Below, one piece after another: positions 736-54,700 of a stretch of 64,000 bases of DNA. Origin of the DNA: Raja brachyura (taxonomy: Eukaryota); contig OY740807.1 of NCBI GenBank assembly GCA_963514005.1, positions 20,646,001-20,710,000 on the forward strand, written 5' to 3'. The notes under the pieces were generated by a model. That model saw only the letters and a program-made list of their open reading frames with translations, was not told where the DNA came from and did no database searches. Both the position numbers and the translations under genes were made by a program. Each line of letters begins with the position of its first letter. Position 1 is the first letter of the stretch.

Positions 736-814
736 TTAGTTTTGCTAAATAAAAACGGAGCGGCTGGAAAATGTATCAGGTCAGGAAGTCGTTGCAGTGT
801 TATAAAAGTTTAGT

Positions 815-3673: not shown

Positions 3674-3703
3674 CAAAAAGAGGAAAGCTGGATCAGGAAG
3701 AAG
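3674..3703 (+). CDS. SRRM3: SRRM3 30-nt exon, (S)KKRKAGSGR(S)
   Basis: ttgcaAG|C AAA AAG AGG AAA GCT GGA TCA GGA AGA AG|GTaaag, phase 2-2. It sits where the KKRRLESECS-like segment precedes the next exon in mammalian SRRM3 (recalled). Confidence 0.72.
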
Positions 3704-6700
3704 GTAAAGGGCCTGTCCCACTTTCACGACCTAATTCACAACCTTTTTTTCTCGTGGACATTTTTTATCATGCTAGAAAAACGCCCCGACCTACTTGATG
3801 CCATGAGTACCTACGACTAGCATCACGGCCTGCTATGACCTACCTACGACCTCCTACTACCTCGTGACGACCATGCGCGAGTATGAGTCAAGGGCAAACT
3901 CGGCAGAGGTCGTGAATTAGGTCGTGAAAGTGGGACAGGCCCTTAAGTGTGAGAAGGTCAAAGTGGAGAAGTCATCTATTGAAAAAGTGAGAACTGCCCT
4001 ATCTAAATGCTTGAATGAGCAAGTCATTAAATGCTCTTTGCTGTGTACTGTTGCTTATTCTGGCACTGAATCATAGAGTCATACAGCGTGGAAACAGGCC
4101 CTTCAACCCAACGTGCCCACACCGGCCAACATGTCCCATCTATACTAATCCCACCTGCCTGCATTTGGTCCATATCCTTCTAAACCTGTCCTATCTAGGT
4201 GCCTTCCTAAATGTTTCTTGAACATTGTGATAGTACCTACTTCAACTACCTACCCCGGCAGTTCATTCCATACACCTACAAATCTTTGCATGAAAAATAA
4301 ATTTGAATCTTTTAAAACACCAGAAGTGTGGTTGGACATTTTTGAACTTGTGAGCAATATTGTTACCCTCAAAGGAAATATATTAAAGGTTTCTACTACC
4401 TCCCATTCCTCACACTCCACAAGCAGACTGTTCCCTATGAGATGGGTAAAGTGCCCACTCCATCCTCACTTAACTCAACCATCTGAAGAGAGGGAAAAGA
4501 TTGGATGTTGAGGTAACAAATGTAAATAACAATCAAGTTGTTCATGCCATTTTTTGGTGGAAAATAATTAATTAAAATAACCAGGATACATCCTGGGGAA
4601 GGCTGCATTGAGCAAGAGCATTTCAGAAGCATCAGAAACATTTATAATGGTAAACTATTTCTGCCTTTTTAAAGAAATGGAAAGGTGTTTTTCTCTTTTA
4701 ATACTTTTATTTTTTCCTGTTTCATTTCTCTATCACTGCCTACATAGATTGGATTTTATAAAGGTCTGTTGCTGTGTGGTTTGTATCAATATCGTGATTC
4801 TATCAGGCCCATCATACACAAGTGATTTTAGCCCAAGCTGAAACTAGTGAGGGGAGAGCTTGGAATTGGTAAGGGAAGGAAACAGTTTCCACAGGCATTC
4901 CATTTCATGTTATCATTAAGCCCATCAAGTCTACTCCACCATTGGCCATGGCTGATCTATCTCTCCATGAACTCTGACACCTGTACTAATCAAGAATCTA
5001 TCTGTCTACCTTAAATATATCCACTGACTTGGCCTTCACAGCCTTCTGTGGCAAATAATTCCACAGATTCACCACCCTCTGACTAAATAAACTCCTCCTC
5101 ATCTCCTTCCTAAAAGAATGCCCTTTAATTCTAAGGCTATGACCTCCAGTCCATTTCTCTCCACTCTTACTTCCACCTCTGCAATTGAAAGCATGCTTGC
5201 TTTCTCACCATTTCCAATTATCATGCATGTTGTCAACCGGTAACCTTAATGATTTCTCCCTAACCTATTGAGTATTTCCATTATTATCTGTTTATATTCT
5301 GCGGGTCTGTTCTTCCATTTAGTTTATCGAAACGGATATACATCGTAACTCCGTCTACTTCTCGAGTTCCAAATCCATTAATACACTTCTATATACAAGC
5401 TATCAAGCTCAGTTTTGAACTGTTTCATCAGTGCTTTTTGAAGACAGCGTTCCAGATTTCCATTAGCATTTGCACAAAGAGGAACTACCTGTCGCCCTGA
5501 ACAATTTTAATTTTGTTTTGCTCTTCTGCAAATTCTATTTCCATCTTCCCACTCTTTCATTTATTGGGAAGCTATGACTATAATTTAATGTGGCTCGGAC
5601 AATTTTGTGAAACGCAGCACATTAAACTTGCTTACATAAAAAGCCACAAAGAAATACACCAGGAGTAGAGAAATCTAGCTTGAGAATTGCTGATTTGTCT
5701 TCCTCAGCTATAAATAAAATTGCAAAGCCAGCAAGCTGTTTTTCTGACTTGCATTGGTTCCTGGTTGGATCTTCTTGTGCTAGATGCAAGTATTTTCAGA
5801 AAGAGACAATTGTTATATTTAAATTGTTTTGTTTTTCTTCATAGCTGCGAAAGTTCCTCATCATCACGGAAAGAGAGAAAAAAGAAGAGTGGGAAGAAAC
5901 ACAAGAGAGACAGGTGGAGTTGCTTCTGTTCTTCTGTAGTCATACCAGACCCCTCCAGGTATAGCACATCTAATGCAGAATCGATCGGCTGCACAATCCC
6001 TGGAGAAAATCATAATGTCTTTCTCACATCCTTGGCCACAGCACAATATCTGAATGATATAGTTAAAGGAACCTATGTAACATCAAGATTTTGAAATAGA
6101 TTACAGTGCAAAGTTTCCAGACAATCTTTTTAAAAGCCTTGCACACGAGGAAAAGTGAGAGATCCGGATAATTCTTATGCCATCGAGTTCCATGGACAGT
6201 TGTTTCTGTTTATTTTGTCTCCCTGTTGCAAGGCATGCCAATATTAATTTTAAGTTGTTGTCTGCAACTACAAATTTAAACGGTTCTCAAGGTAGCATTT
6301 CAGCTTCCAAAATAGATTCTCTGTCAGGGGAAGAAGGCAGTAGTAAGATGGCTGGTCACATCTCGAGTCCAGTAGGGATTGAAGAGCAATAAGGGTCTAA
6401 TAGGAGATCTGTTGTCAGTGCCAGAGTCAGTTTGGAGATCAGAAAGTTTGTGATCAAGGAGATTAGCTGTTAGAAGAGATTATTTGGTTGAATACAGTAC
6501 TATGATCGTGGGATGCCCAAAATATACCAGGTAAGTAATGGGATTTAACCTTTGTAGCATCCCTGTTCAACACAGAATTATTTAAATGCAGTCATCTCAG
6601 GCGCATAACAAAGTAGGAATGTTGTATAGGGAATAACTTGTTCATATGTGATGTGGAAGTTAACTCATGCTGAGCAGATAGGCTGAGGATTGGTTAATGG

Positions 6701-9700
6701 AATTTAATACAGAGAAATGTGAGATGGTGCAATTTGGGAGCACTAACATGGGCAGGACCTGCTCAATGAATGGTAGGGCTCTGGGGGGGGGGGGTGTTGT
6801 TGAGCAGAGGGATCTAGGCGTACAGGTACATAGTGTGTTGAAAGTGGCATCACAGGTAGATAAGGCTTTTGACACATTGGCCTTCATCACTCAGAGTATT
6901 GAGTATAGAAGTTGGGAGGTCATGTTACAGTTGTATAGACGTCGATGAGGCCACATTTAGAGTATTGTGTTCAGTTTTGGACACTGTTATAGGAAAGATT
7001 TTATCAAGCTTGAAAGGGTGCAGAGAAGATTTACGAGGATGTTGCCATGACTCGAGAGCCTGAGCTGTGGGAAGAGGTTGAGCAGGCTAGGACTCTCTTC
7101 CTTGGAGTGCAGAAGGATGAGGGGTGATCTTATAGATTGTACAAAATCATCCATCGAAAGGAATAGATCAGGTAGACGCACAGAGTCTCTTGCCCAGAGT
7201 AGGGGAGTTGAGAACCAGAGCACATAGGTTTAAGGTGAGGGGGGAAAGATTTAATAGGAACCTGAGGGCTAACTTTTTCATACAAAGGGCAGTGGGTGTA
7301 TGGAAGGAGCTGCGGGGGAGGTAGTTAACATAGGTAAGGTCGCAATGTTTAAGAAACATTTAGATGGGTAGGTACATGGATAAGACACGTTTAAAGGGTT
7401 ATGGATCAATCGCAGGCAGATAGGAGTAATGTAGATGGGACATGTTGGCCGGTGTGGGCAAGTTGGGCTGAAGGACTTGTTTCCACATCGTATGACTCTC
7501 TGACTCTTAAGTCACATGTAAAATTATATATTAAATCTAAAATGTTGGAAATACTCAGCCGAACAGACAGCAATTGTGGAATGAGATGGTAATCATTTCA
7601 GGTCAGTAACCTTTCTTCTCAGAACATTAAAATAGGACTTAGAAATTGTGCAGTGGCTCTTTGATATCCAAATGAACATTCTGCATCATTGGTTTTTCCA
7701 AATGCTCGTGTTAATTGTTCTTACTAAAGAAAATGGTCTTTGTATTTATGTCTTCTAAAATGGAAAAAGTGACCCACAATAATTGCCTAATGTTGTGATC
7801 CGGTGATTAAAAAAAAACAGGAGAATGTCTTCATCTCTTTGAAATAAACCACTTGTTTAAGTATCCTTGATACATGGAACCTTAAATTTATTTTGCAAGT
7901 ATTTTCTTTATGGAGCAATCAAAGAGCATTGTGCCCGAGACGACATTGAGCAAACCCCTACACTTAGTCACTTCTCATTTTATACGGGTCTGATTCAGGT
8001 TCCAGAAAAAGAGGAGGCATAGGTAGGCATAGAAAATCATTGGATACCATTGTAAAGGTTCATTAGCTGCCTACTGTCAATGATCACACAACTAGTGCTA
8101 TTGGAATTATGGGTATCGGCTGGTCGCCTATGTTGCAGAAATCTTCTTTGTCCCAGGACTTTGTACAAGATTGTTTTATGGATAAATATGTCAATAAGAG
8201 AACAGGTTATTTAGATCTAGTATTTTGCAATGAGAAGTTAACTAAATAACTTTGTGGTTAAAGGGCCTGTCCCACCAGCATGCAACTCTATGCGATGAGC
8301 GCGACCTAACGTGGTCACTTGAGCCGTCCGGCGTCGCGGGGCCGGTCCCACTTCGATCGCCGAAATTGTGCGGTGTTCGTCCCAACATCGCGTGGGGCTC
8401 TGAAAAACTGACTATGTTAAAAAATTCCGCGCGGCAACGGCTTGTCGGCTCACAGTCGCCTCGACGCATTACACGCCGTCTCAACGTCGTGCCTCCGTGA
8501 CCCTCTCTGTAGGTGCCTCCGTGACCCTCTCTGTGTGTGGCTCTGTGGCCCTCTCTGTGTGTGCCTCTGTGCCCCTCTCTGTGTGCCCCTCTCTGTCCTG
8601 GCGAACTTACCTTTAAGACTTCGATCCAAGTTCGCCTCACTTTGCGCCGCGTTACGCCACTCACCCTACCTCCGCGCGGCCCTCGCTGCCGGTTTGATCG
8701 CGCTTGCCGCATGCAGGCGCATGCTGGTGGGAACGGCCCTGTACAGAGATCACCCGACCTCCGCGTGGCCCGCGCTTCTAGTTTGATCGCGCTCATCGCA
8801 TGGAGTCGGATACTGGTAGGACAGGCCCTTAAGGGGATTTTAAGGAAGACTGGTGAAAATATGGTAGAATTTTATACAAAGATGGGAATTTATTTTAATT
8901 TAGTCCAGAATTAAATCTAAACAAAGAAAACTACAAAGGTATGAGGCACAAGCAGATTGGGGTAAATTGGGAGTCTACATTAAATGTACAACAGTAAACA
9001 AACCATTTAAATAATTAATTATTTTATTATTTTATAGATTACAACAAATTATATATTTCTTGTAAGGCATTAAAAATAAACCATGGCTGACAGGAACACT
9101 TAAAGGTAATATTGGATCAAAGATAAGTCTTACAATGCTGCCAAAAAAGAAAAATCTTGAACATTGAGGAAATATCTAAATTTGGCAATGGGGGGCAATG
9201 GAGGTATTAATAAGGAATAAGAAACTTGAGATCTAACAAGAAGCTTAAAAATGTGTAAAAGCTGTTGTAGACATGTATAATACAAACATAGAGAGAATTC
9301 CTTTCAGCCTGAGACAAGGGAAATTTCCATCAGGGAATAAATAAATAGCAGATACATTATTTGTGTCTGTCTTCTTGGAAGAACAGTTGGTTTAGAATGA
9401 CTGGGAAATATTAGTTTTAAAAATGTAAAGGAAAAGTTAATGGGTTTGAAGGCTGATATACCCCCAGTGTCTGAAGAACCTCATTGCAATATTGTTGAGG
9501 AGATGCTGATGGAGATGGTGCATGCACTGGTTGTCATGTTCCAAATTCCCATTGATTCTTGAGTGATTCCCAGAAATTGGAAGAATGCAAATATAAACCC
9601 AGAACTGAAGAGAGGAGAGAGAAAGTTAATTGGGAATTAGAGATCAGTTAGCCTGACATCATAGAGCAAATTGCAAATCTATTAATAAGGAAATGGTAAC

Positions 9701-12700
9701 TTGACTCTTTGAAAATAATGCAAATGGAAGAGGGGATTTGGAACTAGAAGAGGACATTTGTAGATCTATTAGGGCTTTTAGATGTAGTAAATAGCAGCAT
9801 AGATAAGAGCACATGATTGGATATGGTGACTTTGGACTGTCCAAAGACTTTCAATCAGGTAGCAATTAAGAGATTATAAAGCAAAATGGAACTCTGTACC
9901 TTGGAGAGATTTGAAGGATCAGTAACTGAACATATCTAAGGTAGAAAGCAATGGATCAGCCATCTGAAGAAGGGTCTCGACCTGAAACGTCGCCTATCTC
10001 CTTCGCTCCTGCACCCGCTGAGTTTCTCCAGCTTTTTGTGTAACCCATGATCAAAGATGAAACAGGTGCAAAAAACTTTTTTTATGTACTCATGTATGAG
10101 ACAGAATAAAATAAGTGGAGAAAGAATGGTGCAATTTTTTAATTTCCAGTCAGTAAAACAAAAATCCTGATTCATTATGTTCTTAATTGAAGGTCCAATC
10201 ATACGATCATGGATTGGTTAAATGTTTAACAAATGACTTATTTTCTCCACTTCTTTTACTAAAATATAACGCAGGAAGGAAGTAATTGTGACTTGCAATT
10301 ATTGTGATGATAGTTTAAAATAGATAGATACAAGAAAGATATGTTACAGCAGTGCCGCTTTTCTGTGCCATTGGCACTTTAATCAGTTCTCATCTCATGT
10401 TGCAACACTAGAATCCATGAAGTGCCATCAAACAATAAATAATCAGAACACAATCAAAATATTAAACCAATGGAGCAGTCAAGTTAAATCTAGAGATTAT
10501 GGTTAAATTGATGGCAATTGTTGCATTGAAATTCAGTTGCACTCTTTTTTGTAACTAAACCATGTTGCAGTTTGCCCTAAAAAAAAATTGGTCAAAACAA
10601 GGGTGCAGAGGTATAAAGATTTCTGTACACAGCAAGAAGCGCTAAATACATAACCTTCACACTTCTGAATGGGCAGGGTTAAGTTGCAGTTGCTACCACT
10701 TTACTGCCCAATAATCAGAAAAGGGAGTTTGACCAGTGAAGACTCATTGATCATGGTGACCAGACAACAACAAACTATACTGTGATTCCCATGAAGTAGA
10801 AAAGAACGCAGAAGTGCTTTCCAGTACAATGCACGGTGAGAGACAGGTCTGCTGCACAGGGGATGATGGTGGAGGCTTCACAGATGGATACTCAAGTTGT
10901 TTATCTGGGGGTCCTTTCTCAATATAGCAGTGGCTCATGAAATTCCACAAACTCTCCAAGTTTCCGTTTCAGTGTAAAATAAATATTTCGTACCAACACA
11001 CTTATCGAGAGACAGGCAAGCACATGTAGAATGCATACAGGCACGCACACAAACACTTGCACAATCTGTTACTCAAACCACAAAAAACAGTAACTCAAAT
11101 TTCACTGTACCTTAATTGGTACATGTGACAATAAACTGGCCTTGACTTAGAAACCTTGAAACCTATTTTCTCCAACACCACTCTCACTGACCTAATCCTT
11201 TCACAAATTAAGGAGGTAACAGAAAGGTAATTTGGCACCCATTTGTTTGTTTTTTTCATTTTCGCAAAACAATAATGAATAGGAAGGAGTCCGCCCACAA
11301 TGGAGGTTTACATCCCACCCCAAATTCCAGATACAGTGTCTCAATCAATTGTAGGATGTGATCCTTTACTCATAGCCAGAAAGATCGAAATCACCTTACA
11401 AACAGAGGCTATGTGCAATCTACTAAGTATATTAATGGTTTTTCATTGTTGTAATTACTTCCATTTTGTATTGAGCTGAAGTATCCATCTCAGTAGCACG
11501 TGCTCTGTTTTAAAACTATTATGATGTGAGCACAGCTAACATGGTGTCTGGGTTCCAGCAACTAAGTTACAGGGAAAGGTTGAACAAGTTAGGTCTTTAT
11601 TCTTTGGAGCGGAGAAGGTTAAGGGGGGACTTGATTGAGGTCTTTAAAATGATGAAAGGGATAGACAGAGTTGACGTGGATAAGCTTTTCCCATTGAGGG
11701 TAGGGAAGATTCAAACAAGAGGGCATGACATGAGAATTAAGGGACAGAAGTTTAGGGGTAACATGAGGGGGAACTTCTTTACTCAGAGAGTGGTGGCTGT
11801 GTGGAATGATCTTCCAGCAGAAGTGGTGGAGGCAGGATCGATTTTAACATTTAAAAGTAAAGTGGATAGGTATATGGACGGAAAGGGAATGGAGGGGTAT
11901 GTTCTGAGTGCAGGTAGATGGGACTAGGGGAAAATAAATGGTCGGCACGGACTGGAAGGGCCGAGAAGGCCTGTTTCCGTGCTGTAATTGTTATATGGTT
12001 ATATGTGCAAATCTTCCTCATTATCATTCTAGGCTATGAGGAGAGACTATATTTCTCCCCTCACTAGAGCAGGGTGGAGAGCAGGAGAAGCAACAAATAA
12101 TACAAAGTGTTGTAGAGCGGAGTGGTCTAGGAGTCCAGGTACTTAGTTCCCTGAGAGTAATATCACAGGTAGTGATGTGCTTGGCATAGATATTAACCAT
12201 ATAACAATTACAGCATGGAAACAGGCCATTTCGGCCCTTCAAGTCCATGCCGAACAACTTTTTTCCCGTAGTCCCACCTGCCTGCACTCATACCATAACC
12301 CTCCATACCCTTCTCATCCATATGCCTATCCAATTTATTTTTAAATGATACCAACTAACCTGCCGCCACATATTGTGGGCTGAAAGACCTATTCTACATT
12401 CTAAAGTTGTTTTAGAATCATTAGAAACCCGAGGGACAACCTTTTCAAACAGAGGGCGCTGGGTATATGAAACGAGCTGTCAAAGGAGTTAGTTGAGGCA
12501 AGTACTATAACAGCATTTAAAAGACACTTAGACATGTACATGGAGAGGAAAGGTTTAGAAGGATATGGGCCAAGTACATGTAAATGGGATAGTGAAGATA
12601 TCAGGCCCAAATTGCTGGAGATGATGAGGAGCATAGAGAAGTCCACCTCTGTGCTCTTGCGAGAGAAGGCACAGTCAGGAATCAAGAGCCTAGGTATATT

Positions 12701-15700: not shown

Positions 15701-18700
15701 TGGAGCTGTTACATTTCATTCCCTCGGCTAAATCATTAATATATCTTGTAAACAACTGGTGTCCCAGCACCGAGACTTGCGGCACCCCACTAGTCACTAC
15801 CTGCCAGACTGAAGAAAAAACATCACTCATTCCTTCTCTCCAGAGATGCCGCCTGTCTCGCTGAGTTACTCCAGCATTTTGTGTCTATCTCTGTTTTCTA
15901 TGAGACAGCCAGTTTACAGTCCTTTCTAACACACTTTATCTGGTTCTATGGGCCTTTAATTTATGCGCAAGCCTTTATGTAGCATCGTGTCAAATGCCCT
16001 TTATGAATCTACACTAAAGCTACAGGTTCCCCTCCGTCAACTCTCCCTGTTATTTCCTCAAAGAATTCAAGCGGATTTGCCAAACATAATTTACCTTTTG
16101 TAAAATCATGTTGTGACTAGGTTTAACAGCTAGGTTTAGCATGTTGTTCAGCTATCCTAAACAATTGTCCGTTTCCTCTATAACCTCCTCTATAGGAAAT
16201 GATTTGATTTCCGAAGTATTAGGGGACTCCAGGATTAGGTGACATACCCAGTAAATTAAAGTCATGTGTTTTGGAAGTTCAGAAATAGTTTTATAGTATT
16301 CTATAGAAAAGCATGTTGGCACTGTCTTCAGAAACCCTGGTTGTTCCTGCCCCAACATTTTGTGTACCCATGCTTCAGTGCAATAACTACTTACTGTAGA
16401 TATCAAACATGAATAATTAAAAAGTATCTTCTTGAATATCCTAATTGCGTGAATTATGTCGCAATTTAAATGATAAATATCCATCATAATGGGTGGTCAT
16501 TAATCCAATTAAAATTGTTGCCTAATAGAATTGTTCCATTCATGAAATGTAATGTTGCATCTCATGAATGGAAGCAACTCCCCTTTGACCTGGAAGTACT
16601 TCATGCAGGTGTTGCAAGGAAACTGTGGTAAAGTATATTGTTCATCAAAATTTGCCACATTTTATCATCATGAGTAGCAGTATTATTATCTTGGGGGAAA
16701 AAAAGGGTATTTTAACTACACATACTGTTGAAATCTGCTCTGAAGGAAGTCTGAAATCTAAAGTACTCCTAAGGAAGTCTACACACATATTGGGACGTAT
16801 AATTTTACTCCCCTAATTTTTATTCATTAATTTTCTCCGTAGGTCTACAAGCCCTAAAACCAAACGCAAAGACAGAAGCAAACAAAGAAGGCGGTATGTT
16901 TAATTTATTAATGATTATCCTAGCGGGACTCATGATTCAGCCTTTGATATAAGCTGTTTCTTGCTCACAAAGATGGCCTGAATGATAGATGTTGGACCAT
17001 GGTGATTCTTATTCTTATATTGTTATAGAGGTTTGGTGCAGAGTTCATGATAATGCCAAATAATCTAGTTACACAGCCCTGTAGAGCTCAGTTTCCCACA
17101 TTTGTCTTTTTAGCTTTTCTCTTTTCTCCTTTTCATTTCTATAGTTCTAATGCCTAATTAAAAATATTGAATAAAGGTATAATAATAAAAATTCAAGAAC
17201 CTAATCTAATCAAATATATCAAATGGTTGCCTAATTATTTATGTCACCAAAGCCAAAATAACAAATAGCCTCATTGGACATCAGCATAATCCATAGTGCT
17301 CAATGCTTTCTTGTTTGAAGACAAAAGACACTGCAGATGCTGGAATCTAGAATGGTAAAAGGTCTCAGTGGGTCAATGTTTTGGGTAGAGATCCTGCATC
17401 AGGAGTGAGAGGGGATAGGAAAGATTTCCAATAAATAGGAGTGCGAAGGCAGATGGGATAGAGGCCAATGAGGATGTTGGCCTGACCTTAGCAATGGAGA
17501 AGTCCAAGGGCAGACAGTTCAGTGTGGGAGTGGAAACGGTGATGTGCCATGCCACCAAAAGCTCAAGAAGGCCGTTGTAACCTTGGGGAACACCACTCAT
17601 ATTCTGCCTGGTAGTTTACAATGCAATGGAATGAAAAATAATTGTTCTAATTTCCAAACCCACACCACACATCACCACCCCAGTGTTCTCCTTCCACACA
17701 CACTCACCTGTCCTTCTCGGTTTCTTCTCACCTTGTTCTCCCCTTCCCCACACCTCATTCCATCATCCCCTCCGCTGCACCTATCACCCACCAGCCTCTG
17801 TCCCACCTCACTTTGTGCTATTATTTCCTGGCAACATTTTTAATTCCCTCTCAATCTTGATGCAGTTCAGACCCTAAATGTCAAATTCCATGTTTGGCCT
17901 CTGCAGGAGCTGCTTGACTCATAGTGCATTCTGAGTTCTTCCATCATTCTGTTTTCTTGTATATTACACTTTGTTTGTTACCTTTCCATTTTGCAGTGAT
18001 TTTTTGCTATAGTTCAAGTTATGTTGATTTAAAATGTACCTCATATTTATAGTTTAAGTTGCACAGAGAAAGTACATGGAGTTCCCATTTAGTTTGTATA
18101 ATTCTTTGCAGTGTTGCTTTACATTAGTGTTGGGTACGTATCCACCATAAAATAACAGAAAAAAATGGTAAATACTCAGCAGGTCAAATTGCATCGGTGA
18201 TCAAGAGATCGGAGATAATATTTCAGGTTGATGGCCTACACACACAGATCAGTACTGCCCAGGACCAGGCCCTTCGGCCCACAATGTCTGTGCCAAATAT
18301 TATCTCAACGTAAACTAATCTCTCCCTATACATGATCCATATTTCTCCATTTTCTGCCTGTAAAATTCTTTTAGCTGTCACACCTTTAAATTCTCCCCTC
18401 TGACCGACCTTCAAGCTAGCTCTTTTAGTCTTTTGTTCTGACAGTCTACCCTATCAATGCCGCTTGGAATTTTTATTCCTTTATCAGATATCCCTCAACG
18501 TCTGACATTCCAGAGAAAACATTCCAAGGGTGTCCAACCTCTCCTATTACTAATCCCCTCTAATCCAAGCAGCAATCTGGTAAACATCTTCAATGCCTAT
18601 TAAAATCAAGTATTTTGTCAAAACGGTGACAAGGAGATAAATAGCTTTTTAAAGAAATAAAGGACAGGAGGAAAGGACAAATGAGTAGGCCTGTGATAGA

Positions 18701-21700
18701 GTGGGTGTCAGAAAGAATAGCCATACGAATTATATCTACAAATACTATTTAGAGTACTGCTATATTTAGTTCTGAACACTGATTTTCAGGAAGGATATAT
18801 TAGCCTTGAAGGACATGTAGTGTTTATTCACTCAAATAGCATCAGTCCTAATCATAGACAATTATGGTAACAGATTTCCTAGGCTAGGCTTGTATTTCTC
18901 ATATGAAATTAATTAAGAGCGTATATAATCGAGTTGTTTAAGATGATCAAATATTTTCATTAGACGTAGAGAAAATATTTCCTCTGGTAGGAGAGTTTAC
19001 ACCCATGGGTGAAATTAGAACTATGCCTCTCTCATATATAATGTGTAATTTTAGACGGCAGTTTTTTGTGTAAATGGTAATGAAAATCTGGAACTCTGTC
19101 CTTCATGGCGTTGTTGAGGATAGATCAATTAAAATTTGATAAGACTCGAGATTTATGTTAGCAAGGCATTAAGTAATATGAAACCATGGGAATTGAATGA
19201 AGGTGCCAATCAACTGCAATCTAATTGAATAATGAAACATGTTCAAAGTGTTGAATGGCATATTCTTTTCCTATGTTTAAAAGGTTTTTCACCCGTTTGA
19301 CAACATTACTTTAATACTTGTAAGGCATTAAACACACTGATGAGTAAACTTGGAATAATTACTGCAGTATTTATAACTTTAATAATCCCATTTTATGTTC
19401 CTGCAACCTTAACTAGTTAATGTGTGAGACAGATTTCACAACAGCCACAATAATGTAGTAAAACTAAAAATATTGCAGCACTAACAGTGGAGTGAAGGGA
19501 ATGAACGCGTTGATTCTATACTAGTAAATAGAAGTCTTGTCCAATCCAGTAAATAATTCACATATTAACGTATAATTTAAGACCAACCTTTTTCAGGTTA
19601 GTCACAGTTTTGTGCACAAACATTCGACTGCCTTCCTGACTCACTACATATTTTTTATTAATCCATTGCAGTATAATAATATTTACCCAAATCAGTGATT
19701 AATTAAAATGAATCACAAGAGATTAGGCATCTATGTTCTAATTGGCATTTTGGTTTATTGCTCCCACCAACTGCAAAATGTAGCTTGTGCCTCCAGTTGA
19801 ATTAATAATGTATGAAATCAGGTTGGAGTTGATAATGTTCCAGATCCATGGCCAATTTACAAGGGCTACCTTTAGTTCCACAATCACATCCTCTGTAGTA
19901 TAGCCAACACTTATCCTTGAATCAGCAACTCAAGAACACCTTGATGTACCATGATCATATTCAGTGAGAGTGTATACGTTAAGAGAAAATAGTGTAAGTG
20001 TTTCAAGCCAATAATCATTCATTAAAACCTGATATTTAGGACTTGGATTAGGAGGAATTGTTCACCTCAAATGACTTGATATTTTTTGGAATTCTCTATC
20101 CCAAAGGCTTGTATGAGCTTGGTCATGTATGTTCAAGAAAGAGATTATTCAAATGTGGTTAATTTTGAAAAGTAGGAAAAAGTAGTCCTTTCAATCATCA
20201 TAAAGAAAGAGACTTCTAAGTGTTCAGGTTTGTAAATAAGACCAACCCAATGCACAATAATACATGTGCATGTATTACATACAACTACTATTTGCATTAA
20301 TACCGTTAATGTTGTGAAACATCTCAAAGCATTTTGCAGTTGTCTTATCAAACAAATGTAATACTAAACCACAAAAGAGGTTTATGAACAAGTGATCAGG
20401 AAGGTTTTGAGTACCTATGAATAGAAAAATGGTAAGATTTATGAATTAGCAGCAGCATTTTGAGGAGATATTTCCAGATTTGTAATATTCTTAGTGTAAA
20501 ATACCTCCTGACATCTCGCCTGATTCATAAAGTTATGTATTTATTCTAAATTCTTCAACCAGAGGAAATATTTATGTTTTAATCTTCCTAATTTAAGGGA
20601 ATGTGGCCTGAATTCTAGCATTCTGTACTCATAACATAAATAATGGTTTTTTTTGTGTGATTAATAGAATTATTTTTTTTACATTATAAATAATAATGAA
20701 ATGCTGTGATACATTAAGTAATCAGTCGTGTTCTGATTGAAAGGTAGATTCTGCATAAAGGGCTGTTTTCTGATTGTCTGCTAATGATATTCTTTTCAAA
20801 TTCTATATTATACTGACATTTCCACTGCTGATAACATCCACAGGAAAGACATTGCTCAGTGTGGTCCATTTCTCATGCAAGCATCTTTTCCTCAACAGGT
20901 CACCCAGTGAGTCACCACCACGGAAAACACACAAAGCCCGAAGCTGTTGCAGCTCCCGCAGTGTGTCTGCATCGTCCATACGCAGCTCCTCCAAATCTCC
21001 AAGCAGGTCAGTATTACATGCCACATATTCGGCCGAATATTAACAGACTAGGTGTTATGTTATTATCCAAATTCTGACTTCCCGTCTGTAAACCTAATTC
21101 CCTGATGTTAACTTTACCATCATTACCTATCCCCATTCATAATTAGAATGGGAACGTTTCTAATTTTGGTTAGACATTACTCTTGTTCTGCAGTACGTTA
21201 CAAGTTTTATCACAAAGGCCATCTGTTCAAGGCAGCACCCAGCAGTTAATAGAATTAGATATTCAGCAGTGCTTTCAAAGGTTCCACACTGCCGATTTCA
21301 TGATCCTAGTCAAAATGAGATTAAATCACTACAGAATTCTTAATTTGTAACTCCCATCTGTTAAACGTCTAAAACTTGTAACAGAATAAATAATATGTAA
21401 CACCCAATTCTATTTTATGAAATACTGGAAGTTTAGTAATCTGGCAATTTATATTACAGCCCACCTAGAGAGCAGATTGCTGCAATGGGTAAATATGTTC
21501 TGAGAAAGATTTAAAAAAATGGGGATGAGGAGTAAGAAAGATACAGACAAAAGATAGAAAGTGTGAGGAATCGAGAAAAGGAGGGAGAGAGAAATTATTA
21601 TTGCACTGTTCCTTAACATAATAGTTAAAACTGATTAACACACTTTTTATTTTAATAGGCCTATTAATATATTACCATGATTTTGTAAATAAATAACAAC

Positions 21701-24700
21701 AGAGTGTGAAAAAGGACAAACGTATCAATCTAAAATGTGTATGGGCTATGTTGGCACCTAGGTCATTTTGCTTTCCATTTGATCCTATCTGACCGTTTAT
21801 TTAATCTTGACAAATCATGTGTAGCAAGGGCAGTTTTTACAGGTGTACTAATTTCTAGACAGACGGTTCTAAATTGGCATAGAACATAAAGATATAAGTA
21901 CAGCTGCCAGCCTATACTTTCAATAGCGATCTAAATTAAATGTTTTCCCCAAGCTTTCACGTCAGGTTTGCATTGCGTCCATGCAACCTTTCTATTAACA
22001 TGCAGGTCTTAAAACCTGTTAACAATACTGGAGAAGGTGATCTTCTGTAGTAGGGTCTCGACCCAAAATGTCACCCATTCCTTCTCTCCAGAGATGCTGC
22101 CTGTCCCGCTGAGTTACTCCAGCTTTTTGTGTCTATTTACTGAAACACAGGCCTGGATTCTCCTTGACAACCTGCTGCCTGTAAAGCCTATTCATCTGAA
22201 GGCAATTTGAAAGGCAATCAACCAGCACCAAGGTCCTGGAGCCAGTTAGATCCTATGCTGCAGCAACTCATTCCAGTGATATCTGGAACCATCTCCACTT
22301 AAAAAATCCCCCTGAACTTTTGGCAGATGACAATGCTCTTAATAGAAGGTGCATCTTGGGCACAATGCTGCTTGGCTTCACCATTGCCATCTATGCCACT
22401 CACTCATAGCTTAAAAGCCACCACAGCCATTGATTGTTTGTGATTATTCCTGACATTGTAATTACAAAAAATAGTTTATTACAATATTTTTTTAATTGGC
22501 AAAGACACAAAAATATTTAATATCACAATTTAAATATCAAATTCCAAAACATGGATTTTTATGTGAAATTACTGACAAAATTCACAACATTAAGATGCCT
22601 TGCTTATAATACCCATTTTCTATAAGTTAATGCTTTCTTGCTGTAATACTTCCCCAATATTGTTGATAAAACAGCAATGCCATGGAGGATTTATCTGCAT
22701 TTAGTTAATTGTTTCATCCCAATATTATTTGGGCTTAAGTTCATCAAGCATAGGAGAAAATAAACCATCAACAAATACCTAACGTGCAAGTGCCAGATTT
22801 TGCCACATGAACTTTTAAAAATTTAATAATGGCATGACAGGTTAATGGTGAAGTTTAATAGCCTTCTGATTAGGTGGTACTACATTGAAGCAAGCTGTGT
22901 GGAGTGATTGAGGGGCTGCAGCGAGGTCAACAATGTACTTGAATTGTATTCGCAAATGCACAGTGTGCAACAGTGTATTACAATCTTTCAACACTTCATT
23001 GACTAAAGACTAATCACCCACTGACCAATGTTGGAACTCAGCAACGAGCTTATTGGTTACACTTAATCAGCCACTTGCTTTTATTTGTTTTCCAGTTCCC
23101 ACAGCCCATCTTCAGAGCGTAGAACATCACATTCCAAAAGCAAACGCAGTGCTATTTCCAGGCAGCCCAAGAATGACACAAACGAACCCAGTCAATCTCC
23201 TCTGCAAGGCCGACGCAACAGATCAGTGACTCCCAGAGAGAATGGACACAAGGGTCCTTCGTGGAGTGACAGACACAGTCCAAGACACAGACATCCACCA
23301 AACAGATCACAGGATGTATGTAGTCTTTTCCTTCTTTTCTCTGGTTTTCCTCTTTTCTCTCTCTTTTTCTCCTATCCAGCCCCTTCTCTTTTCCTCTCTC
23401 TCTTCTGGGAGTTTTGAAGCCAGTTTCCAATCAGAATCTTGTGTGTGCTCTCCATTCCCCATCATTGTTTTCTATTTCTCATTACCATCTGAACAGCATG
23501 TGCAGTTCATTAGCAATAAGCTTCATTTGTGGTAGAAAATTCCAAATCCTATGAACAATTTAGTAGAGAGTACCTTATTAATCTTAGGATGTCCTTCCTC
23601 CATATATAAATTGTATCCAGAAATTTGTCTATTGAACTAATGATCAGTTCGTTAAAGGGTTTAGTGAAAATCTATATCCAATTGGTAAGGAAAAGTAGGG
23701 AGAACAGAGTCAGAACTGACTAGCCTTTCACAAAATTTGATTGCATAATGGTATTAATGATATTTTAAAGTAGTGATGAGAGATCTCAGTTGTTCAAAGA
23801 AATAAGAGTTAAACTGATATTTCCTTTTGAGCAGGAAAGGTTGGCTAGAAGTGTAAAAAGAAGTAGTCAAGATTATGAATGGTGCGGTACAGGAGAAATG
23901 ATTTCTACTGACAGGAGGCTCGCATGACAAATGTATAAAATAATTAACAAGGGCAAGAGAACATGAGATAAAAAAGTATCTGCATTAAGATTTCATGATC
24001 AGAATGTCTGTTTGAAAAATGGATGGAAACAAATGAAAAAGTAAAATTAAGAAAAGAAAGTAAAATACTTAAAAGGACAAAAACCCTACATAGGTTAAAC
24101 ATTGGGATAGGACTGATAGACCTTTGGTCCAAAGCAGGATTTTATGACAATTAAAATGTAAGTTACATGAACTCTTAATTAGTTTTTGCAACCCATCCCC
24201 ATTGTAATGAATTGTAATGTGCAAGCCATAGATTCAAGTATGCTGTTTGAGAGGCTCAACAGTCTGGAAACATGATCTGTCCCCTGCAGATTTTGTGATT
24301 TTGTGATTACTGTCAGCTTCATTTTGGCTCAAAGGGAGCAGGGATTAGCCAAATTAATATGTATTCCATTGATGTGTTCCATTTTCCCTGTATCTTGAAA
24401 CAAAATACAAGAGAAACAATCTGAAGCCACATGTTGGCGATTAAACGAAGCGTCCTTGGGTAAAACTTTTAGGGAGATATGATTATTTATATTGTGTTTC
24501 CTCATGTTGCCACCACTTCGAATATACCGATACAGCTGGTGGAAACAAATGATGAAGTGATACACTGCACCAATTTCCAATTGCAGCATTCTCAAATGCT
24601 GCTGTCTGCATTTTCTTACTGGGTATACAACAGATACCACCTTATTTGGCAAAACATGATGATATTTATTATTCAAGGTGCCATCCGTGTGTCTCTCCAG

Positions 24701-36700: not shown

Positions 36701-39700
36701 CAACCTGTTAAGCTCACTTTTTAAAGTTTATTTATTCTTCCATTCTATTCCTTCTTAAACTTTTGTTGACTCTTTATTTATTTTTTTCCAATTCCAGGTT
36801 TTTATTTTCAATTAGTTTTTGGTTTGCATGCAAAATCTTGCATGAGCTGCACTGTAGAGGACTGTGTTAGATAAAATATTGACGTAGGCTGTGTCATAGG
36901 GATGTGGCAAGAATTGGAAAATGGTGTTGCTAATGTGTCAGGGTCTCTTTTAAGGTTAGCCTTTTTCTCCTGCCGCAGAGCACGGACTCCAGGTCATTGT
37001 CCCCAGGAGCAGAGCCCAGGTCTGCATCAAAGTCGCCAAAGGCAAAGGAAGGCAAACACTCGAAGCATAATTCCAGGAGTTTCAGGTCCAAATCCCCCGG
37101 CCACAGCAGGAGGTCCTCCGCTGAGGGAAGACACGCAAAGCCCAGGTCAAGATCACCATCCGCTCACAGAGGCTCAAGCCGACGGAAGTCGACCCTGCCG
37201 GCTCACAAAGTGTCTTCTCGCTCTCCAAGTCAATCGGACTTCAGCAGTGACTCTGCGGGAAGTGTCGGCAGTCGGTCGCGATCGCGTCATACGTCAGGCC
37301 GGAGTAAAAGCACACGAGCAAAGAAGTTAGTCCTCGCTTATTTTTCTGCTTTTCAAAAGACACAATCTTGATATTCTGCATCCCCAGCTCTCTTAAATTC
37401 CTGTCCACCTATTTTTAGGTCATTCATTGTTGACATGCCCCAATGTACTCCTCCACATTCTCCCCTCCATGGAACCTGTTCTTCAGGTTACAAATCTGGT
37501 TTTCTGGGTCATTGATCATGACGGAATGGAAATGTAGCTATAACCACATTTCGGTTCCCTTAATACCAATAAATGGACCCGGCCCCCAAAATGCAACCTC
37601 TTAGTATTGGTGAAACTGCAGTCCATTGACAAAGTTATCTTGGAAATTGGTTTCGAAAATAAACATCTGTGGCTATCTGCAGTCTGTAAGATGTGCGTAA
37701 ATTATTCACTTCCTGTCATGATTCACCCTCCAAGTCTCATTTCCCATCATATTTCACATGCTATGAGATCATTAACATTCATCTTATGGCTCGCTGACAG
37801 ACATTGAATAACAAGGCTGTGACCCATGATCTTCGTGCATCACAGCAAAACAAAAACGTCCAACACACAGAGAGGGGGAACCATATTGATTAATGCATGC
37901 TGCTCTTTTGCAGACGATCAATCAATAATTATGTGACACTTGGGGCTTGAATATAACATGAAGCCCAATCAGCAGCTCCATAACTCTTTCATTTGAACTA
38001 ATTTTCACATCCAGGCCCCATGATTTCCACTTTCCTCCCTTGATTTCAGTCTTGTTTCTCTGTTTTCCCCATGCCCCCGTCCCCTATGCAAAATGTCTGT
38101 CTTCCTTTCCCCTCTTACACATGGCAGCCTGCGTGATTGTTGTAACGTGAGCTCTTTAACAATGCTAATACACTTCCTTATAAGCAGATTTTATTTGTTG
38201 GATCACTTCCATGTAATCTTAGAGCATAACTGAGTTCACCAGAAATGGTTCAAATCCAATTTCTAGACTTTTATATCCACACAGGCACAGTACAATCATG
38301 TAATTATTCATACCACCTTGCAGTGACCCAAGTTCTGTCTATGTTGTCATATTCTTCTTCATTAAAGTAAGCTTAACATAAATTTAACCACAACACATAG
38401 TTATTCAACCAAAGTCAGGATACACTATTTATAAGCACTCCTGTGAGTTTGGGTTTCATTTTGTTGAAACTGCTTGTGTTCCATTCATGCCTGATTTTTT
38501 ATTATTTAAGGTGTTGTGTAGGCATTGCACCCAGTGTGAAAAGTTAAAATACTTTCATGAAGTGCTCCCGGTCAAACTGGCCAACATGAATCAAAAATGT
38601 ACTAGTTAGAGTCATGCTTTATACAAAAGATACGTGTTGAGGAAATTGCTGCAGGAATTTTGCAGAATCCTCAACAAAGCCCCATTTGACTAGTTTTACC
38701 AATAATTGTCCATTCATAAGAGCAGTGAATTGCTGATGATTGCACAGTGTTTAGTTGTAATGATGTGTCCTCATATAATCAAGGATTCCATGCCTGCCTA
38801 AAGCAAGGTCTGGCCAACATTTGGTTCATTACAAGCGGTAGGTAACACACAAATGTCAGGCAATGATCCGTTCCATTCAGTACGAGCCTGCCACTGTGAT
38901 ATGATCACTATGTCCTCAGCATCCCAGCATTGACCAGAAATCTATTTTTATATATTTTTATTAGAGGCCATACGCATTACAAATAATATGATAATTTTTT
39001 TCAGATATATTACATCTTTCCAAAATTATATAAATATTACAAAGCCAAATATATAGGCCTCAATTTTTTTAATAGTGTGAAGAAAAAAAAAGAGTAAAGA
39101 AAGAATAGAGATTAATTTAAAGAGTGTGATTATAATTTTGATTAGAAGAGAAAAAGAGAGAAAAAAAAACATATAGCTAATAAACAATTATTATACTTAA
39201 AGATTAAAAAAACAGTATACATCTTAACAATGAATGGAACAATTTCTAATTATAATATATAGAGACAAGTATATAAATCTCAGATTAAACATTTTCGTTT
39301 GATCTTACCACCGGGTACTTGTTGAGTTTCAATGCTGAGCCCAGCTACCCCTTCATATAATCAGTGAATGGAGACCATATTTGTTCGAAAAGCTCGTGTT
39401 TATCCATTAGGATAAACCTAATTCTCTCCAATTGCAACGTCTCCAACATTGACCAGAAATCAAACTGAGCAATGCCCTGCGTAGAAGTTTAAATTTTCTG
39501 GCTTTTATAGTGAGTTGCAAATGTCTCCATAACTTCAACTTCTACATAGATTTGGTGATTATTCGAATGGTGTGGAACGGAGGGGGCCCTTGTTTTACCC
39601 ACTTCCTGGCATACGTGTACAGCTATAACTGCAATAGTCATCATAAATTCACAGCAATGATAACTGCAAATTTGCCTGAGAAGCAGGTCGGAAGCTGCAA

Positions 39701-45700: not shown

Positions 45701-48700
45701 TAGGCCAAAATCTAGCCAACTCAATCTCAAGAAAGTTGAAATTTTACTTTTAAAGCAAAGTATCCAGATTGTGAATGCAGTTCAATTGGCAAATGTGTTT
45801 GCTGTTCACCCCAGTTGTCCAATAATAAATGTGGATTGCAACTTTTAATAGATGCATATGTTTCTGGTTAACCTTGCAATCATCTCTAAAAGGAAGATGG
45901 CCAAGTGAACTCATTTCAGATTTTTGTTTTCTTTATTGGTCAAGGTGTTCACCTCTCCCAAGTTGTCACCTGGCTATGGAGTATTGCTTTCTGCTTCAGG
46001 CAGAGGTGCTCTTGGAAATTAGATTATGTTATTTCTGCCAGCCCTCACTGCATTCAGCCTTACGGCATTTTAAATTATCCTACAATACATACTTCTGAAA
46101 AGCAAATCAGGTATGACAAGATTGATGAATTAGGGAACGCTATTTCTATTACCTGGGTGGAATTGGTTATAATGCTATTTTCACCAGGAACTAGAGAACT
46201 GCATAAAAGGCACTTTAAATTGACATGCCGGTAAAGCTGTCTTGGAAAAAAATAGTCTAGGGAGAAAAAAACTGCTTCCATTTCCCCTGCCCACAATAAT
46301 CAGATACCATTGTCTCTTAAGAACGCAGTCCGTCAATTTCACCACCAGTATTCATTGAAATTTACAAGTATTTGCTTTTATTGACACTTATGGATATTCT
46401 AATAAAAAGGGTAAAGGTCCTGTCCCACCTTGCCGAGTTACTCACAAAATCTCCAGAGTTTTCCTCTTGATTCGAACTCGGATAATTACAGTAATAGCCA
46501 TTCGTAGGTATTCGGGGCTTTTTTTTATCTCGTGGACATTTTTCAACATGTTGAAAAAACGTCCCGACTTATTTGATGTCCCGAGTTCCTATGGTTGGCA
46601 TTACAAGCCGCTACGAAACATCTACGGACTCCTACGGACTCGCTACTGACATTTCCCGACATTCCCCAAGTTCGAATCAATGGGAAAACTCGGGAGAATT
46701 CGTGAGTAACTCGGGAAAGTTTCAAAGGAATGCACCTATCACACTATCGCAGAACTGTTTGTATTTTGCTGTTCAAAAAGTGCAGAAAAAAAACAGATTA
46801 TTAATATCACTACCTACCTTTCCTTTTGCTTGCAACAATGTCCAGGAAATGAATAATTTTTTTCCTAGCGAATCCAGGACATGCAAGTCGATTAAAACTC
46901 TGCTTGGAGTGTCTGCGATGCACAATACCCAACAGATGTAGGGGCAAAACTGGATGAGGCATGAGATCTGTCCGTATCCCCATTGTCCTAGGCTCGTCAG
47001 GTCACAAAACAAAAATTAAGAACATCTGTTTGATTTTTCTGAAGGTTAAGGCATGCTTCAAGTCGTCACCATCGAAGGCATTACACGAGCAGGAACAAGA
47101 GCCGCACCCGGTCTCCAAGGAAGCACGAACAACCCAGCAGCCACAACTCGGACAAAAAGAAAAGCTCTTCCTACAGCCCCCGGCGCAAGAGCAGCTCCAG
47201 GAGCTCCAGCAGGTCCGTGTCCCGCTCATGCTCCCGATCGCATGATAAGAGAGATGGACGGAGCAAATCACGGTCTTTACTTCGGAAGGAGCAGTCCAGG
47301 TCGGTCACTTCCCTCCACCATGCTAAGCAGGGTGAATGTCAGTAGCTGGAGTAACTCAGCGGGCCAGGCAGCATCTCTGGTTCCTTCTCTCCAGAGATGT
47401 TGCCAGTCCTGCTAAGATACTCCAGCATTTTGTGTCTATCATTGTTACAAACCAGCATCTGCAGTTCCTTCCTACACACATGGTTATTGTAGGTATAATT
47501 GTGCAAATTCCATTTGCCTACTGTATGTAATACCAGAGAAATGGAACGCGCTAGTACTTTTGTCTGAGCTTGATTTGCAGAACTTTACTATGTTTGTTTA
47601 AAAGATGTCAGAACATTGATCATCTTGCCTTTTGCAAAATCTGGATCTGCTTCTGGCAATCACCTCTGTAAGAGGAAGGAAGCCAAATGAGCGAGTTTCA
47701 ATCCGTTAAAGAGATCAAACTTTTTTCCTTAATTGGTCAAGGTGTTCACGTTTTCTAAAATTGCTCAGCCTTCATTTAATTTATTTACATATTCCATTCC
47801 TGTTTTAGTTGTAAAAGCTGTCAAATTATCTTTTTATCTTGTCTGAGATAATTGCTCTGCTACGATGTCTGTTTATTTTTTATTTATTATAATTTTATTA
47901 TTTAAGAAAATAGATGCTATTTGCAGTAATATAAATGGAAGATCATCATCTCAAAAAACTCAATCAAATGTGCAGACCTGGATATTCTTGTGTGCAGTTT
48001 TGGATATTCTTGCAGCAAAGATACTGTGTTAGATGAGGGGAAATTAACCAGACTAGATCTGTACTCTCTTTAATTTGCAAGAACAAGGGATGATAAAACA
48101 TAGAACTGTACAGTCCAGAATCAAGCACTGTGGCCTACGATGGCTCTGCTGCACATGATGTCAGTTTAAACTGTACATTTGTCTGCACATGATCTATAGT
48201 CCTCCATTCCCTGCCTATTCATGTCTTACATAAATGTCTCCTACTTGCTGTCATTTCTACTTCCTCTACTTTTCCTGGCAGCATATTCCAGACACCTACC
48301 AATCTCTGTGTAAAAAAATGTGTCACATGAATCGTGTTTAAACTTTCCTCCTCCCACCTTAAATCTGTGCCCTCCAATATTTGAAATTTCCACTGTGGAA
48401 AAAAGACTGTCTACTCTGTCCATGTCTCTCATCATTTCATAATTTCTTGTCAGGTTGCCCCTCAGCCTCCGACACTCGAGAGAACATAATTCTTACAAGA
48501 ATGATCCCAGGAATGAGTAGTTAACCTATGATGATCATTTGTCAGCACTGGGCCTGTACTCGCTGGAGTTTAGAAGAATGAGGGGGAACCTCGTTGAAAC
48601 ATACAGAATAGTGAAAGGCTTGGATAGAGTGGATGTGGAAAGGATGTTTCCACTAGTGGGAGAGTCTAGGACTAGAGATCAGAATTAAAGGACATTCTCT

Positions 48701-51700: not shown

Positions 51701-54700
51701 ACACTGATATCATACTTAAGGGCCTGTCACACTAGCGCGCGATTAGACGCGATAAGCGTGACAAATTCGGACGCGGGGGTCGCGTGGGGGTCAGGCGATC
51801 CCGGTGCGAGTGAAGGGCCTGTCACACTAGCGCGCGATTACACGCGCGACGTCCGAAGGAAGGACGTTATTTTTCATCACGTGACGATGCGCATGAGCAT
51901 GCGCGTTGCACGACGTCGGGCAGTGACGTCATCACGCAACGCCACGCTGAAGACGCACAACGTCAAAACGTCATCACGTTCCGCGCGACAGGATTTTGCC
52001 GCGCGTAATTTTTAAGCAGTGTCGGTTTTTGGACACTACGCGCGATGTCGACACCAGCTCCACACGAGTCCGCGGAACTCCACCAGACTCCGGCGATCGC
52101 AGTGGGACAGGGTCACGCGAGGCCGGACGACTAAAGCGACCACGGTAGGTCGCGCTTATCGCGTCTAATCGCGCGCTAGTGTGACAGGCCCTTCATTTTC
52201 AGCTATTTGTCCTATTAATTAATCCATCGTTGTGGATACAGCATACATTTAGATGTGTCACCTTTAAATGTGGCCTTTTTAACAGTTTACAGTTCGCTGA
52301 ACTTACGCTTTCATTTCCATTGCCTATTTGTTCACTACATACACATGTTTCAATTCCAGGGATTTGTTTCTTTCCACCATAACCCTTCTCAGGTCCCAGG
52401 CCCTCTCTTAAGTGAGTTTATACCTCCTAAAAGCACCGGCAAATGCCCTGCGAGGATATGTGTAGAACATAGAACAATATGCACTTCAATTAAAGAGTCT
52501 GAAGGTACTGTGATCTGGACCAAAAAACGTGCTTCTCGAGCAACAGCAGCAGAGGCAGCGTTTATGGAGGCAGAGGAGTGGCTGATATTATAGGTCCAGA
52601 CCTGTATCAGTTTCTCAGCCTGAAGCGTCCATCATCCCTGTCTCCACAGATGATGCCTGGGCCACCGAGTTCTTTCAGCAGTTTGTTTTATTGCACTTCA
52701 ATTAAATTTGTATTAACAATCTAAATAATGTCGGGGATAAATTCCTACAATTGAGCCACGCTGTAATGGCTCGATTGTAATCATGCATTGTCTTTCTGCT
52801 GACTGGATAGCATGCAACAAAAGCTTTTTACAGTACCTCGGTATTGATAAGGTCCCACATAGGAGATTTGTGGGCAAAATTAGGGCACATGGTATTGGGG
52901 GTAGAGTGCTGACATGGATAGAAAATTGGTTGGCAGACAGGAAACAAAGAGTAGGGATTAATGGGTCTCTTTCAGAATGGCAGGCAGTGATTAGTGGGGT
53001 ACCGCATGGCTCAGTGCTGGGACCGCAGCTATTTACAATATACATCAATGATTTAGATGAAGGGATTCAAAGTAACATTAGCAAATTTGCAGATGACACA
53101 AAACTGGGTGGCAGTGTGAACAGTGAGGAGGATGCTATGAGAATGCAGGGTAACTTGGACAGCTTGGGTGAGTGGGCAGAGACATGGCAGATGCAATTTA
53201 ATGTGGATAAATGTGAGGTTATCCACTTTGGTAGCAAAATCAGGAAGGCAGATTATTATCTAAATGGTGTCAAGTTGGGAAAAGGGAAAGTACAACGGGA
53301 TCTGGGGATCCTTGTTCATCAGTCAATGAAAGTAAGCATGCAGGTACAGCAGGCAGTGAAGAAAGCAAGTGGCATGCTGGCCTTCATAACAAGAGGAGTT
53401 GCGTATAGGAGCAAAGAGGTGCTTCTGCAATTGTATAGGGCCCTAGTGCAACCACTAGGGTCCTATACAATTGGGCCCTAGTGGTTGCACTACTGTGTAC
53501 AGTTTTGGTTCCCTAATTTGAGGAAGGACAGCATAGATTTACAAGGTTAATTCCTGGGATGGCAGGATTGCCATATGCTAAGAGAATAGAACGGCTGGGA
53601 TTGTATACTCTGTAGTTTAGAAGGATGAGAGGGGATCTTATTGAAACATATAAGATTATTAAGGGTTTGGACATGTTGGAGGAGTCCAGAACCAAGGTTT
53701 TAGAATAAGGGGTAAGGTATTTAGAACGGAGATGAGGAAACACTTTTTCACACAGAGAGTTATGAGTCTGTGGACTTCTCTGCCTCACAGGATGGTGGAG
53801 GCCGATTCTCTGGATACTTTCAAGAGAGAGCTTGATAGGGCTCTTAGCGATAGTGGAGTCAGGGGATATGCGGAGAAGGCAGGAACGGGGTACTGATTGT
53901 GGATGATCAGCCATAATCACATTGAATGGTGGTGCTGGCTCGAAGGGCCGAATGACCTACTCCTTCACCTATTGTTTATTGTCTATTGTGTATCGGTACC
54001 CTTTACAATAAACTAAACTGATACTGAACTGAAACTGAAAGCATTGTAGACAAAAATGAGACGGCTTCTGGGGCTTGTCTTTCAATTAGTAAAGTTGGTG
54101 TTTTAATATTTACCACACAATAATTGTTAAGACAGCACAAGAGGAAATCAATTGGAATAGGAGATAAAGTAGGAGGGATTCTCTTTCTTTCGCACCTGTG
54201 CAGTTATCCATCCATTTTCTCCTCCTAACAGAGAAAGAGATAGTGACATTGGACCACGGCACCATGACTCTGAGGCTGAGAGACACCGTCGCCGATCAAG
54301 AAGTTATTCACCGATCAGAAAACGAAGGAGGGATTCGCCCAGCTTCATGGAGCCCCGTCGGATTACAAGGTACACCATCTGGAGGCCCCAGCTGCCATTC
54401 TTCAATTGGGTTTGTTTAGGATACAGGCATGGATTTGATAAAGGAAGAAAACATTACTGACTATGCATCTTTTCAGCTATTCAGATTTCATTTTACCGTG
54501 AGTATAGTGATATTTTAGCAAGGGTATAAGGGTTGATTTAACAGATTCCCTACATGGCCAAATGGTGACTTTTGGACTTCCTCCTGTACTATATGTTCTC
54601 ATTTATAACCTTCTTACTAAACCTTCTTTCATAGGGAATGTATTAAGTTGTAGGTGGGATGTGAAGACTGCATTCTTTATCGTTAGTTTATGTACTTTGA

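Follow-up and report, generated by a model that had tools for sequence, protein, structure and literature searches.

The SRRM3 gene of the ray Raja brachyura carries a conserved exon of 36 nt whose acceptor has been destroyed and which has also lost a single base; the distribution of these two lesions in the source and its relatives suggests, with modest confidence, that the exon was lost by skipping and has since decayed at a homopolymer run. The gene was studied in a window of 64,000 nt, i.e., positions 20,646,001 to 20,710,000 of contig OY740807.1, to which all coordinates below refer.

On the evidence of its domain and its nearest named homologues, the gene is SRRM3 (SRRM3/4 family), as the original prediction held: its SRRM_C/eMIC domain matches the Pfam profile PF15230 (E 2.7e-16; 60.3 bits against a cut-off of 27), and the closest named protein is Narcine SRRM3 (1/1 match in protein searches). 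The window holds eight more coding exons on the + strand, all with canonical borders and reaching as far as position 60318:

5845..5913, + strand: SRRM3 coding exon before the broken exon, 69 nt, phase-2 end, AG/GT borders
16843..16893, + strand: SRRM3 coding exon after the broken exon, 51 nt, phase-2 start; joins directly to 5913 in frame
20899..21006, + strand: SRRM3 coding exon, mapped in the window
23096..23315, + strand: SRRM3 coding exon, 88% identity to Narcine SRRM3
36979..37325, + strand: SRRM3 coding exon, 79% identity to Narcine SRRM3
47045..47299, + strand: SRRM3 coding exon, mapped in the window
54232..54369, + strand: exon with the first part of the eMIC/SRRM_C domain (PF15230)
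60111..60318, + strand: final coding exon, containing the remainder of SRRM_C and the stop codon (PF15230 profile match and exon mapping)

The first of these is identical to Narcine SRRM3 at 23/23 residues. A motif scan of 1-5844 found no exon upstream of 5845, and the N-terminal part of SRRM3 with the cwf21 domain probably lies before the window. Midway through the product of exon 23096-23315, the Narcine protein has 9 extra residues, three of them cysteines, reflecting either an insertion there or a deletion here. The donors at 54369 (GTACAC) and 37325 (GTTAGT) look weak, the former dividing the eMIC domain; the absence of SRRM_C from many database models of SRRM3, together with the weak donor at 54369, hints at regulated splicing at that point.

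The broken exon and its splice signals lie between the first two of these exons:

7963..7985, + strand: pyrimidine tract of the old acceptor, with CTCAT (A at 7977) as the candidate branch point
7986..7987, + strand: dead acceptor, GG instead of AG (CGG at 7985-7987), the same in the X1 contig described below
7988..8022, + strand: what is left of the conserved 36-nt exon, shortened to 35 nt and ending TAG|GTAGGC
7997..7998, + strand: first downstream AG, candidate cryptic acceptor at +11, giving 24 nt with A5 and 25 nt with A6
8004..8005, + strand: second downstream AG at +18, giving 17 nt (frameshift) with A5 and 18 nt (in frame) with A6
8006..8010, + strand: A5 run, one base shorter than the A6 of relatives B and C (1-nt deletion)
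8023..8028, + strand: intact donor GTAGGC, 6/9 consensus matches

These letters—the GG acceptor, the 35-nt block, the A5 run, the AG at 7997-7998 and the 24 nt that follow it—can all be read directly in the window as originally claimed. The CGG at 7985-7987 stands against an AG acceptor in all eight other coding exons. As had also been proposed, the ancestral exon was 36 nt long, in phase 2/2 and conserved, for the block with one A restored spells exactly the 12-residue segment of Narcine and Callorhinchus SRRM3; by this sequence match the block is the true homologue of the conserved exon and not a chance match. A search of the window for a second copy of the exon found none (one exact match, and three with up to three mismatches against 2.25 expected). 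The last 8 exon bases recur 2 bases on (8015-8032; copy at 8025-8032), straddling the donor, a duplication common to relative C among the differences listed; this repeated exon end was considered as a donor site and rejected, no GT following it.

The possible readings of the block differ sharply in their outcome. Splicing at the 7999 acceptor would yield the 24 nt of 7999-8022; placed between 5845-5913 and 16843-16893, these are in frame, as predicted, and read R-F-Q-K-K-R-R-H-R. This form runs open to the natural stop (472 aa within the window). Skipping from 5913 to 16843 is equally open to the natural stop (464 aa within the window). In contrast, inclusion of all 35 nt meets a stop at residue 131, in exon 23096-23315, and the 17-nt form one at residue 125, both falling four exons before the last. 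Two further acceptors were tried and discarded: the upstream AG at 7966-67 gives 55 nt and a stop at residue 40, and an acceptor shifted by 1 nt gives 36 nt in which a stop codon is read. The block holds five AGs, of which three are in frame with A5 (24, 9 and 6 nt) and three with A6 (18, 9 and 6 nt). Since three of the five are thus in frame on either allele, an in-frame 24 nt is by itself weak evidence and no surprise. Neither is the AG at 7997-7998 a "new AG", as it had been called: the old exon already had it, where the codons TCA and GGT (Ser-Gly) meet, and in relative C it is unaltered.

Reads from four of 20 listed runs (X1, X3, X7 and X16) were compared over 5780-8255, with one individual per organism, so that the alleles may not be fixed. 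The 20 runs come from 9 studies; 0 are recorded as RNA, and the 5 guessed to be RNA all belong to other organisms. A contig of 826 nt from X1 (organism A, all sampled words present) covers 7458-8255 at depth 4.9 with 0 other letters and 0 gaps, matching the window at 798/798 bases. The raw-read comparison proposed in the original prediction over G7986 and the A run thus returned CGG and A5, not CAG and A6; both lesions are present in reads and are not assembly-only errors. The earlier argument against simple sequencing error holds to this extent and is tempered by the nature of X1, which may be the source sample itself rather than an independent one, at a depth just under the caution level of 5. 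If one or both lesions were nonetheless sequencing or consensus errors, the position of the deletion in a homopolymer would be natural, and the only run of the source organism compared, probably the assembly's own sample, would be a shallow witness. However, the gapless match of the read-derived contig, the canonical borders and open frame of the other eight exons, and a G7986 deduced in an independent study (X7) make such an artifact highly improbable, and an error in A5 alone would still leave the acceptor loss standing.

Two runs from two other studies, X3 (relative B) and X7 (relative C), have an A inserted behind 8005 (8.7/8.7 and 10/10, respectively), which X1 does not; the A deletion is thus private to the source lineage among the three organisms compared, one individual each. 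In X7, two contigs span 7901-8028 at depths of 7 and 3, which sum to the flanking depth and represent two alleles, with 4 differences from the window on the deeper and 6 on the shallower, the 3 shared ones being at 7942, 7947 and 7979. By the 30-base overlaps of the contigs, the alleles first differ at 7931 and last at 7999; with a word length of 31, the bubble stays unbroken only if two more differences lie between these. All four remaining differences are therefore private to one allele, leaving no room for a shared change at 7986. Hence, at least one allele of relative C appears to combine CGG with A6, with 7986 deduced from contig overlaps rather than read directly; under uniform placement, both alleles have CGG in 99/105 compatible arrangements, 7986 being involved in 6/105. 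The remaining five X7 differences, judged by kind (three from G), also fit CGG in relative C, 40/71 differences being listed individually. The four places in 69 bases (7931-7999) at which the X7 alleles differ are denser than the divergence of about 2% seen between species in the intron, and one of them is 7999, the +1 base of the cryptic acceptor.

Relative B is compatible with either G or A at 7986, as four of its G>A differences have no listed position. With 10 changes common to B and C, about 14 private to B and at least 21 private to C, relative B is closer to the source than C, and parsimony therefore gives it G at 7986 too; on this sequence comparison, the acceptor was probably lost in an ancestor shared with B as well. 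The two mutations that the original prediction wished to see ordered through relatives can to that degree be so: A6 in B and C dates the deletion as the later event, and the CGG deduced in C places the acceptor loss first, persisting in C without compensation. The same comparison divides the claim of a mutually compensating pair, for the order suits a rescue, yet an allele with CGG and A6 in relative C would render the deletion unnecessary.

One might instead suppose that the GG acceptor, or that of one of two alleles, is still used non-canonically, with the 36-nt exon alive in B and C and the window presenting a rare frameshift haplotype. The exon and its donor are otherwise conserved, only one individual was available and contigs drop second alleles, and relative B is compatible with AG at 7986. 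Against this, GG at -2/-1 is as a rule no recognized acceptor; X1 has a single contig across the site at a depth like that of its neighbors (4.9 vs 6.2); and one allele of relative C is deduced to differ at 7999, where any change turns the conserved Gly to Asp or Ala. This alternative is accordingly given little credence. In X16 (organism E, of uncertain kind), one contig piece covers 5844-5915 only, as spliced RNA would by depth bins, with no cover at 7988-8022 and no contig joining across; it is not taken as evidence for skipping.

The segment itself is widely retained. Among 185 proteins fetched, 170 have the upstream anchor and 15 do not; the 12-residue segment was found by pattern in 155/170 of the anchored homologues, and its Gly, encoded by the codon at 7999, is kept in 149/155. 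Exactly this exon is absent in 7/170 anchored models—four Dendropsophus isoforms, one Hyla, one of three Leptobrachium and one Tupaia—these skip forms of frogs and tree shrew being database models known from annotation rather than DNA, and the other 8/170 comprise 2 variant inclusions, 2 cut-off sequences and 4 odd models. A shortened form of the segment occurs in 0/170. Protein searches found no cartilaginous-fish SRRM3 clusters beyond Narcine and Callorhinchus, and a 23-nt pattern of the exon gave 0 matches in metagenome contigs. All five listed models from Dendropsophus and Hyla lack the 12-residue exon and those of Bufo, Engystomops and Dendrobates keep it, pointing to a possible independent exon loss in hylids, as far as such models go.

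The splice signals bear on what could have replaced the old acceptor. The latter retains 13/17 pyrimidines at -20..-4 of 7988 and has its candidate branch A 10 nt away, the same A lying 21 nt from the 7999 acceptor. The site at 7999 has a CAG|G context; no other AG comes between it and the candidate branch point, and a zone of 29 nt free of AG precedes it. Its tract ends about 12 nt before the AG and is of ordinary strength, with 10/17 pyrimidines, below all eight used acceptors (11-14/17). A YAG is thus present a short way into the exon (CAG at +11) at a workable distance from the branch point, as a cryptic site should be. At 6/9 matches to the consensus, the donor GTAGGC scores like the seven other donors, which range from 5 to 8.

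These signals leave room for a different course, in which the old AG at 7997 took a part of splicing once the acceptor was lost, and the A deletion then spread because it brought a 24-nt exon into frame, with the basic KKRRHR retained. On A6 alleles, use of AG 7997 would waste transcript by frameshift, or else the 18-nt form from AG 8004 would be used. The order of acceptor loss and deletion, the favorable position of the 7999 site and the intact donor all fit, as does the survey of cryptic 3' splice sites, which reports that exonic cryptic acceptors are usual after mutation of the AG, with a peak 8 nt into the exon, skipping cases being excluded (PMC1636351). The product, if the 7999 acceptor is used, would be of microexon size (under about 30 nt and a multiple of three), and its tract and branch point stand farther from the AG, as described for neural microexons (10.1101/2024.09.17.613571). 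Yet relative C appears to keep CGG with A6, so that a rescue was not required; the site has the lowest pyrimidine content of any acceptor in the gene; the TGC (UGC in RNA) expected between branch point and AG in SRRM3/4-dependent microexons is absent within 30 nt, the nearest being at -67; no anchored homologue has the shortened form; and an in-frame outcome at a mutable run is roughly a one-in-three event. From the sequence, this compensated origin is rather unlikely. Its fuller version is a two-step birth, with acceptor loss shared by several ray species, an uncompensated CGG/A6 intermediate alive in the sisters by skipping or through the 18-nt form, and then a 1-nt deletion creating the in-frame 24-nt exon, its set-back tract maybe under SRRM3's own control; it too must be called unlikely.

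Exon loss by skipping followed by decay seems the best account of the same observations. The acceptor would have been destroyed by an A>G change at -2 in a common ancestor with relative C, and probably with B as well, and the exon so lost would be a symmetric one of 36 nt in the R/S/K-rich middle of SRRM3. In most transcripts 5913 would now be spliced straight to 16843, at the cost of 12 low-complexity residues but with no damage to the frame or to the C-terminal eMIC domain; the destroyed splice site (CGG) and the frame-preserving skip (464 aa) are what is expected of a lost exon. As AG 7997 frameshifts with A6 (25 nt) and AG 8004 with A5 (17 nt), and the two alleles differ by a single exonic A, neither is likely to be the main route if both alleles are common, so that skipping appears to be the main outcome, and since it keeps the frame, no rescue is needed. 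In a zebrafish study, the eMIC domain is reported to be necessary and sufficient for microexon inclusion, and absence of the srrm3 eMIC to be lethal at 10-13 days (10.1101/2021.09.08.459463); given this lethality, a frameshifting AG is unlikely to carry most transcripts. Shorter exons, above all those < 30 nt, are moreover included less according to another report (10.64898/2026.05.22.727141), and a minor 24-nt inclusion product, which may exist, would be harmless.

Once released, the exon would have drifted, losing an A from the A6 run in the source lineage only, and one allele of relative C would have altered the conserved Gly codon in the course of this drift. Three of the four indels among the three organisms fall in runs of at least 5, only 7 such runs existing in 1563 unique bases, and with indels so concentrated, slippage is likely at an A6 run once its exon is released. 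Possible signs of relaxed constraint are one indel here and one deduced Gly change in C, i.e., two events only, where the intron rate predicts 0.8 substitutions for 36 nt. Against exon loss stand the intact donor, the strong conservation of the exon, which means that its loss may carry a cost, and the order of acceptor loss and deletion, which is what a rescue needs; moreover, the 1563 unique bases hold a single indel on the source branch, and it lies in the exon, where it brings the first AG into frame (uniform chance that at least one of 4 indels lands in the 35 nt: 0.087).

If the exon is indeed lost, one ray clade, and perhaps hylid frogs too, can do without a basic segment of 12 residues that is otherwise retained from chimaeras to mammals; this agrees with the view that the eMIC domain is the working part of SRRM3. 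Such a result would be modest, with the practical consequence for annotators that homology-based pipelines could call this SRRM3 broken. If, on the other hand, the 24-nt form were really used, three close species would show the initial, intermediate and final stages in the shrinkage of a long exon to a microexon, a series that is rare and directly testable.

The surroundings of the exon are rich in repeats. A MITE-like element, which has terminal inverted repeats and contains tandem repeats of 24 nt and 89 nt, lies at 8261-8830, 240 bases downstream of the broken exon's donor, where it might affect exon definition; others are found at 3707-3944, 46416 and 51720-52195. High-copy LINE-like fragments with reverse-transcriptase-type frames are found at 6681-7506, 11800-12600, 13857-15895, 40310-40944, 42500-43800 and 52971-53991, some as inverted pairs inside the intron after the broken exon.

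Searches for SRRM3 with shark, skate or cartilaginous exon loss found no published report of this loss, subscription papers and bioRxiv supplements being mostly outside reach, such that a table entry could be missed. The nearest comparisons are the SRRM3 proteins of Narcine bancroftii (XP_069741050.1) and Callorhinchus milii (XP_042194502.1), which share the exon order, the RS-rich middle, the C-terminal SRRM_C/eMIC domain and near-identical exon flanks; their 12-residue segment is whole, whereas in Raja the acceptor is dead and one base is missing. A parallel to the Raja skip form might be drawn with Dendropsophus ebraccatus X1-X4, Hyla sarda X2 and one of three Leptobrachium models, in which exactly this exon is absent and the flanks are joined in frame; these are annotation models, in contrast to the Raja lesion, which is read in DNA.

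With SRRM3/4-dependent neural microexons, the putative 24-nt exon shares its length, a multiple of three, and the distance of tract and branch point from the AG, although the tract is of ordinary strength; it differs in having no UGC near the AG and no conservation as a microexon, its inclusion being only putative. UGC occurs in 74-79% of the microexons dependent on SRRM3/4 and is not strictly required for the response (10.1101/2024.09.17.613571). The cryptic 3' splice sites of DBASS3 include the same -2A>G lesion, the commonest mutation class at that position with skipping cases excluded, and an exonic AG a few bases downstream able to share the tract and branch point (PMC1636351); those cases are disease alleles with demonstrated RNA use, whereas the Raja allele appears to be shared between species and is known from DNA alone. 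Frame-preserving acceptor shifts and compensated frameshifts are likewise, in TOGA2, known and routinely handled classes (10.64898/2026.06.30.735536); what differs here is that the shift and the indel would offset one another and carry the exon across the size limit of microexons. The Raja case is most likely an ordinary lost symmetric exon, or possibly a cryptic-acceptor shift, both being known classes.
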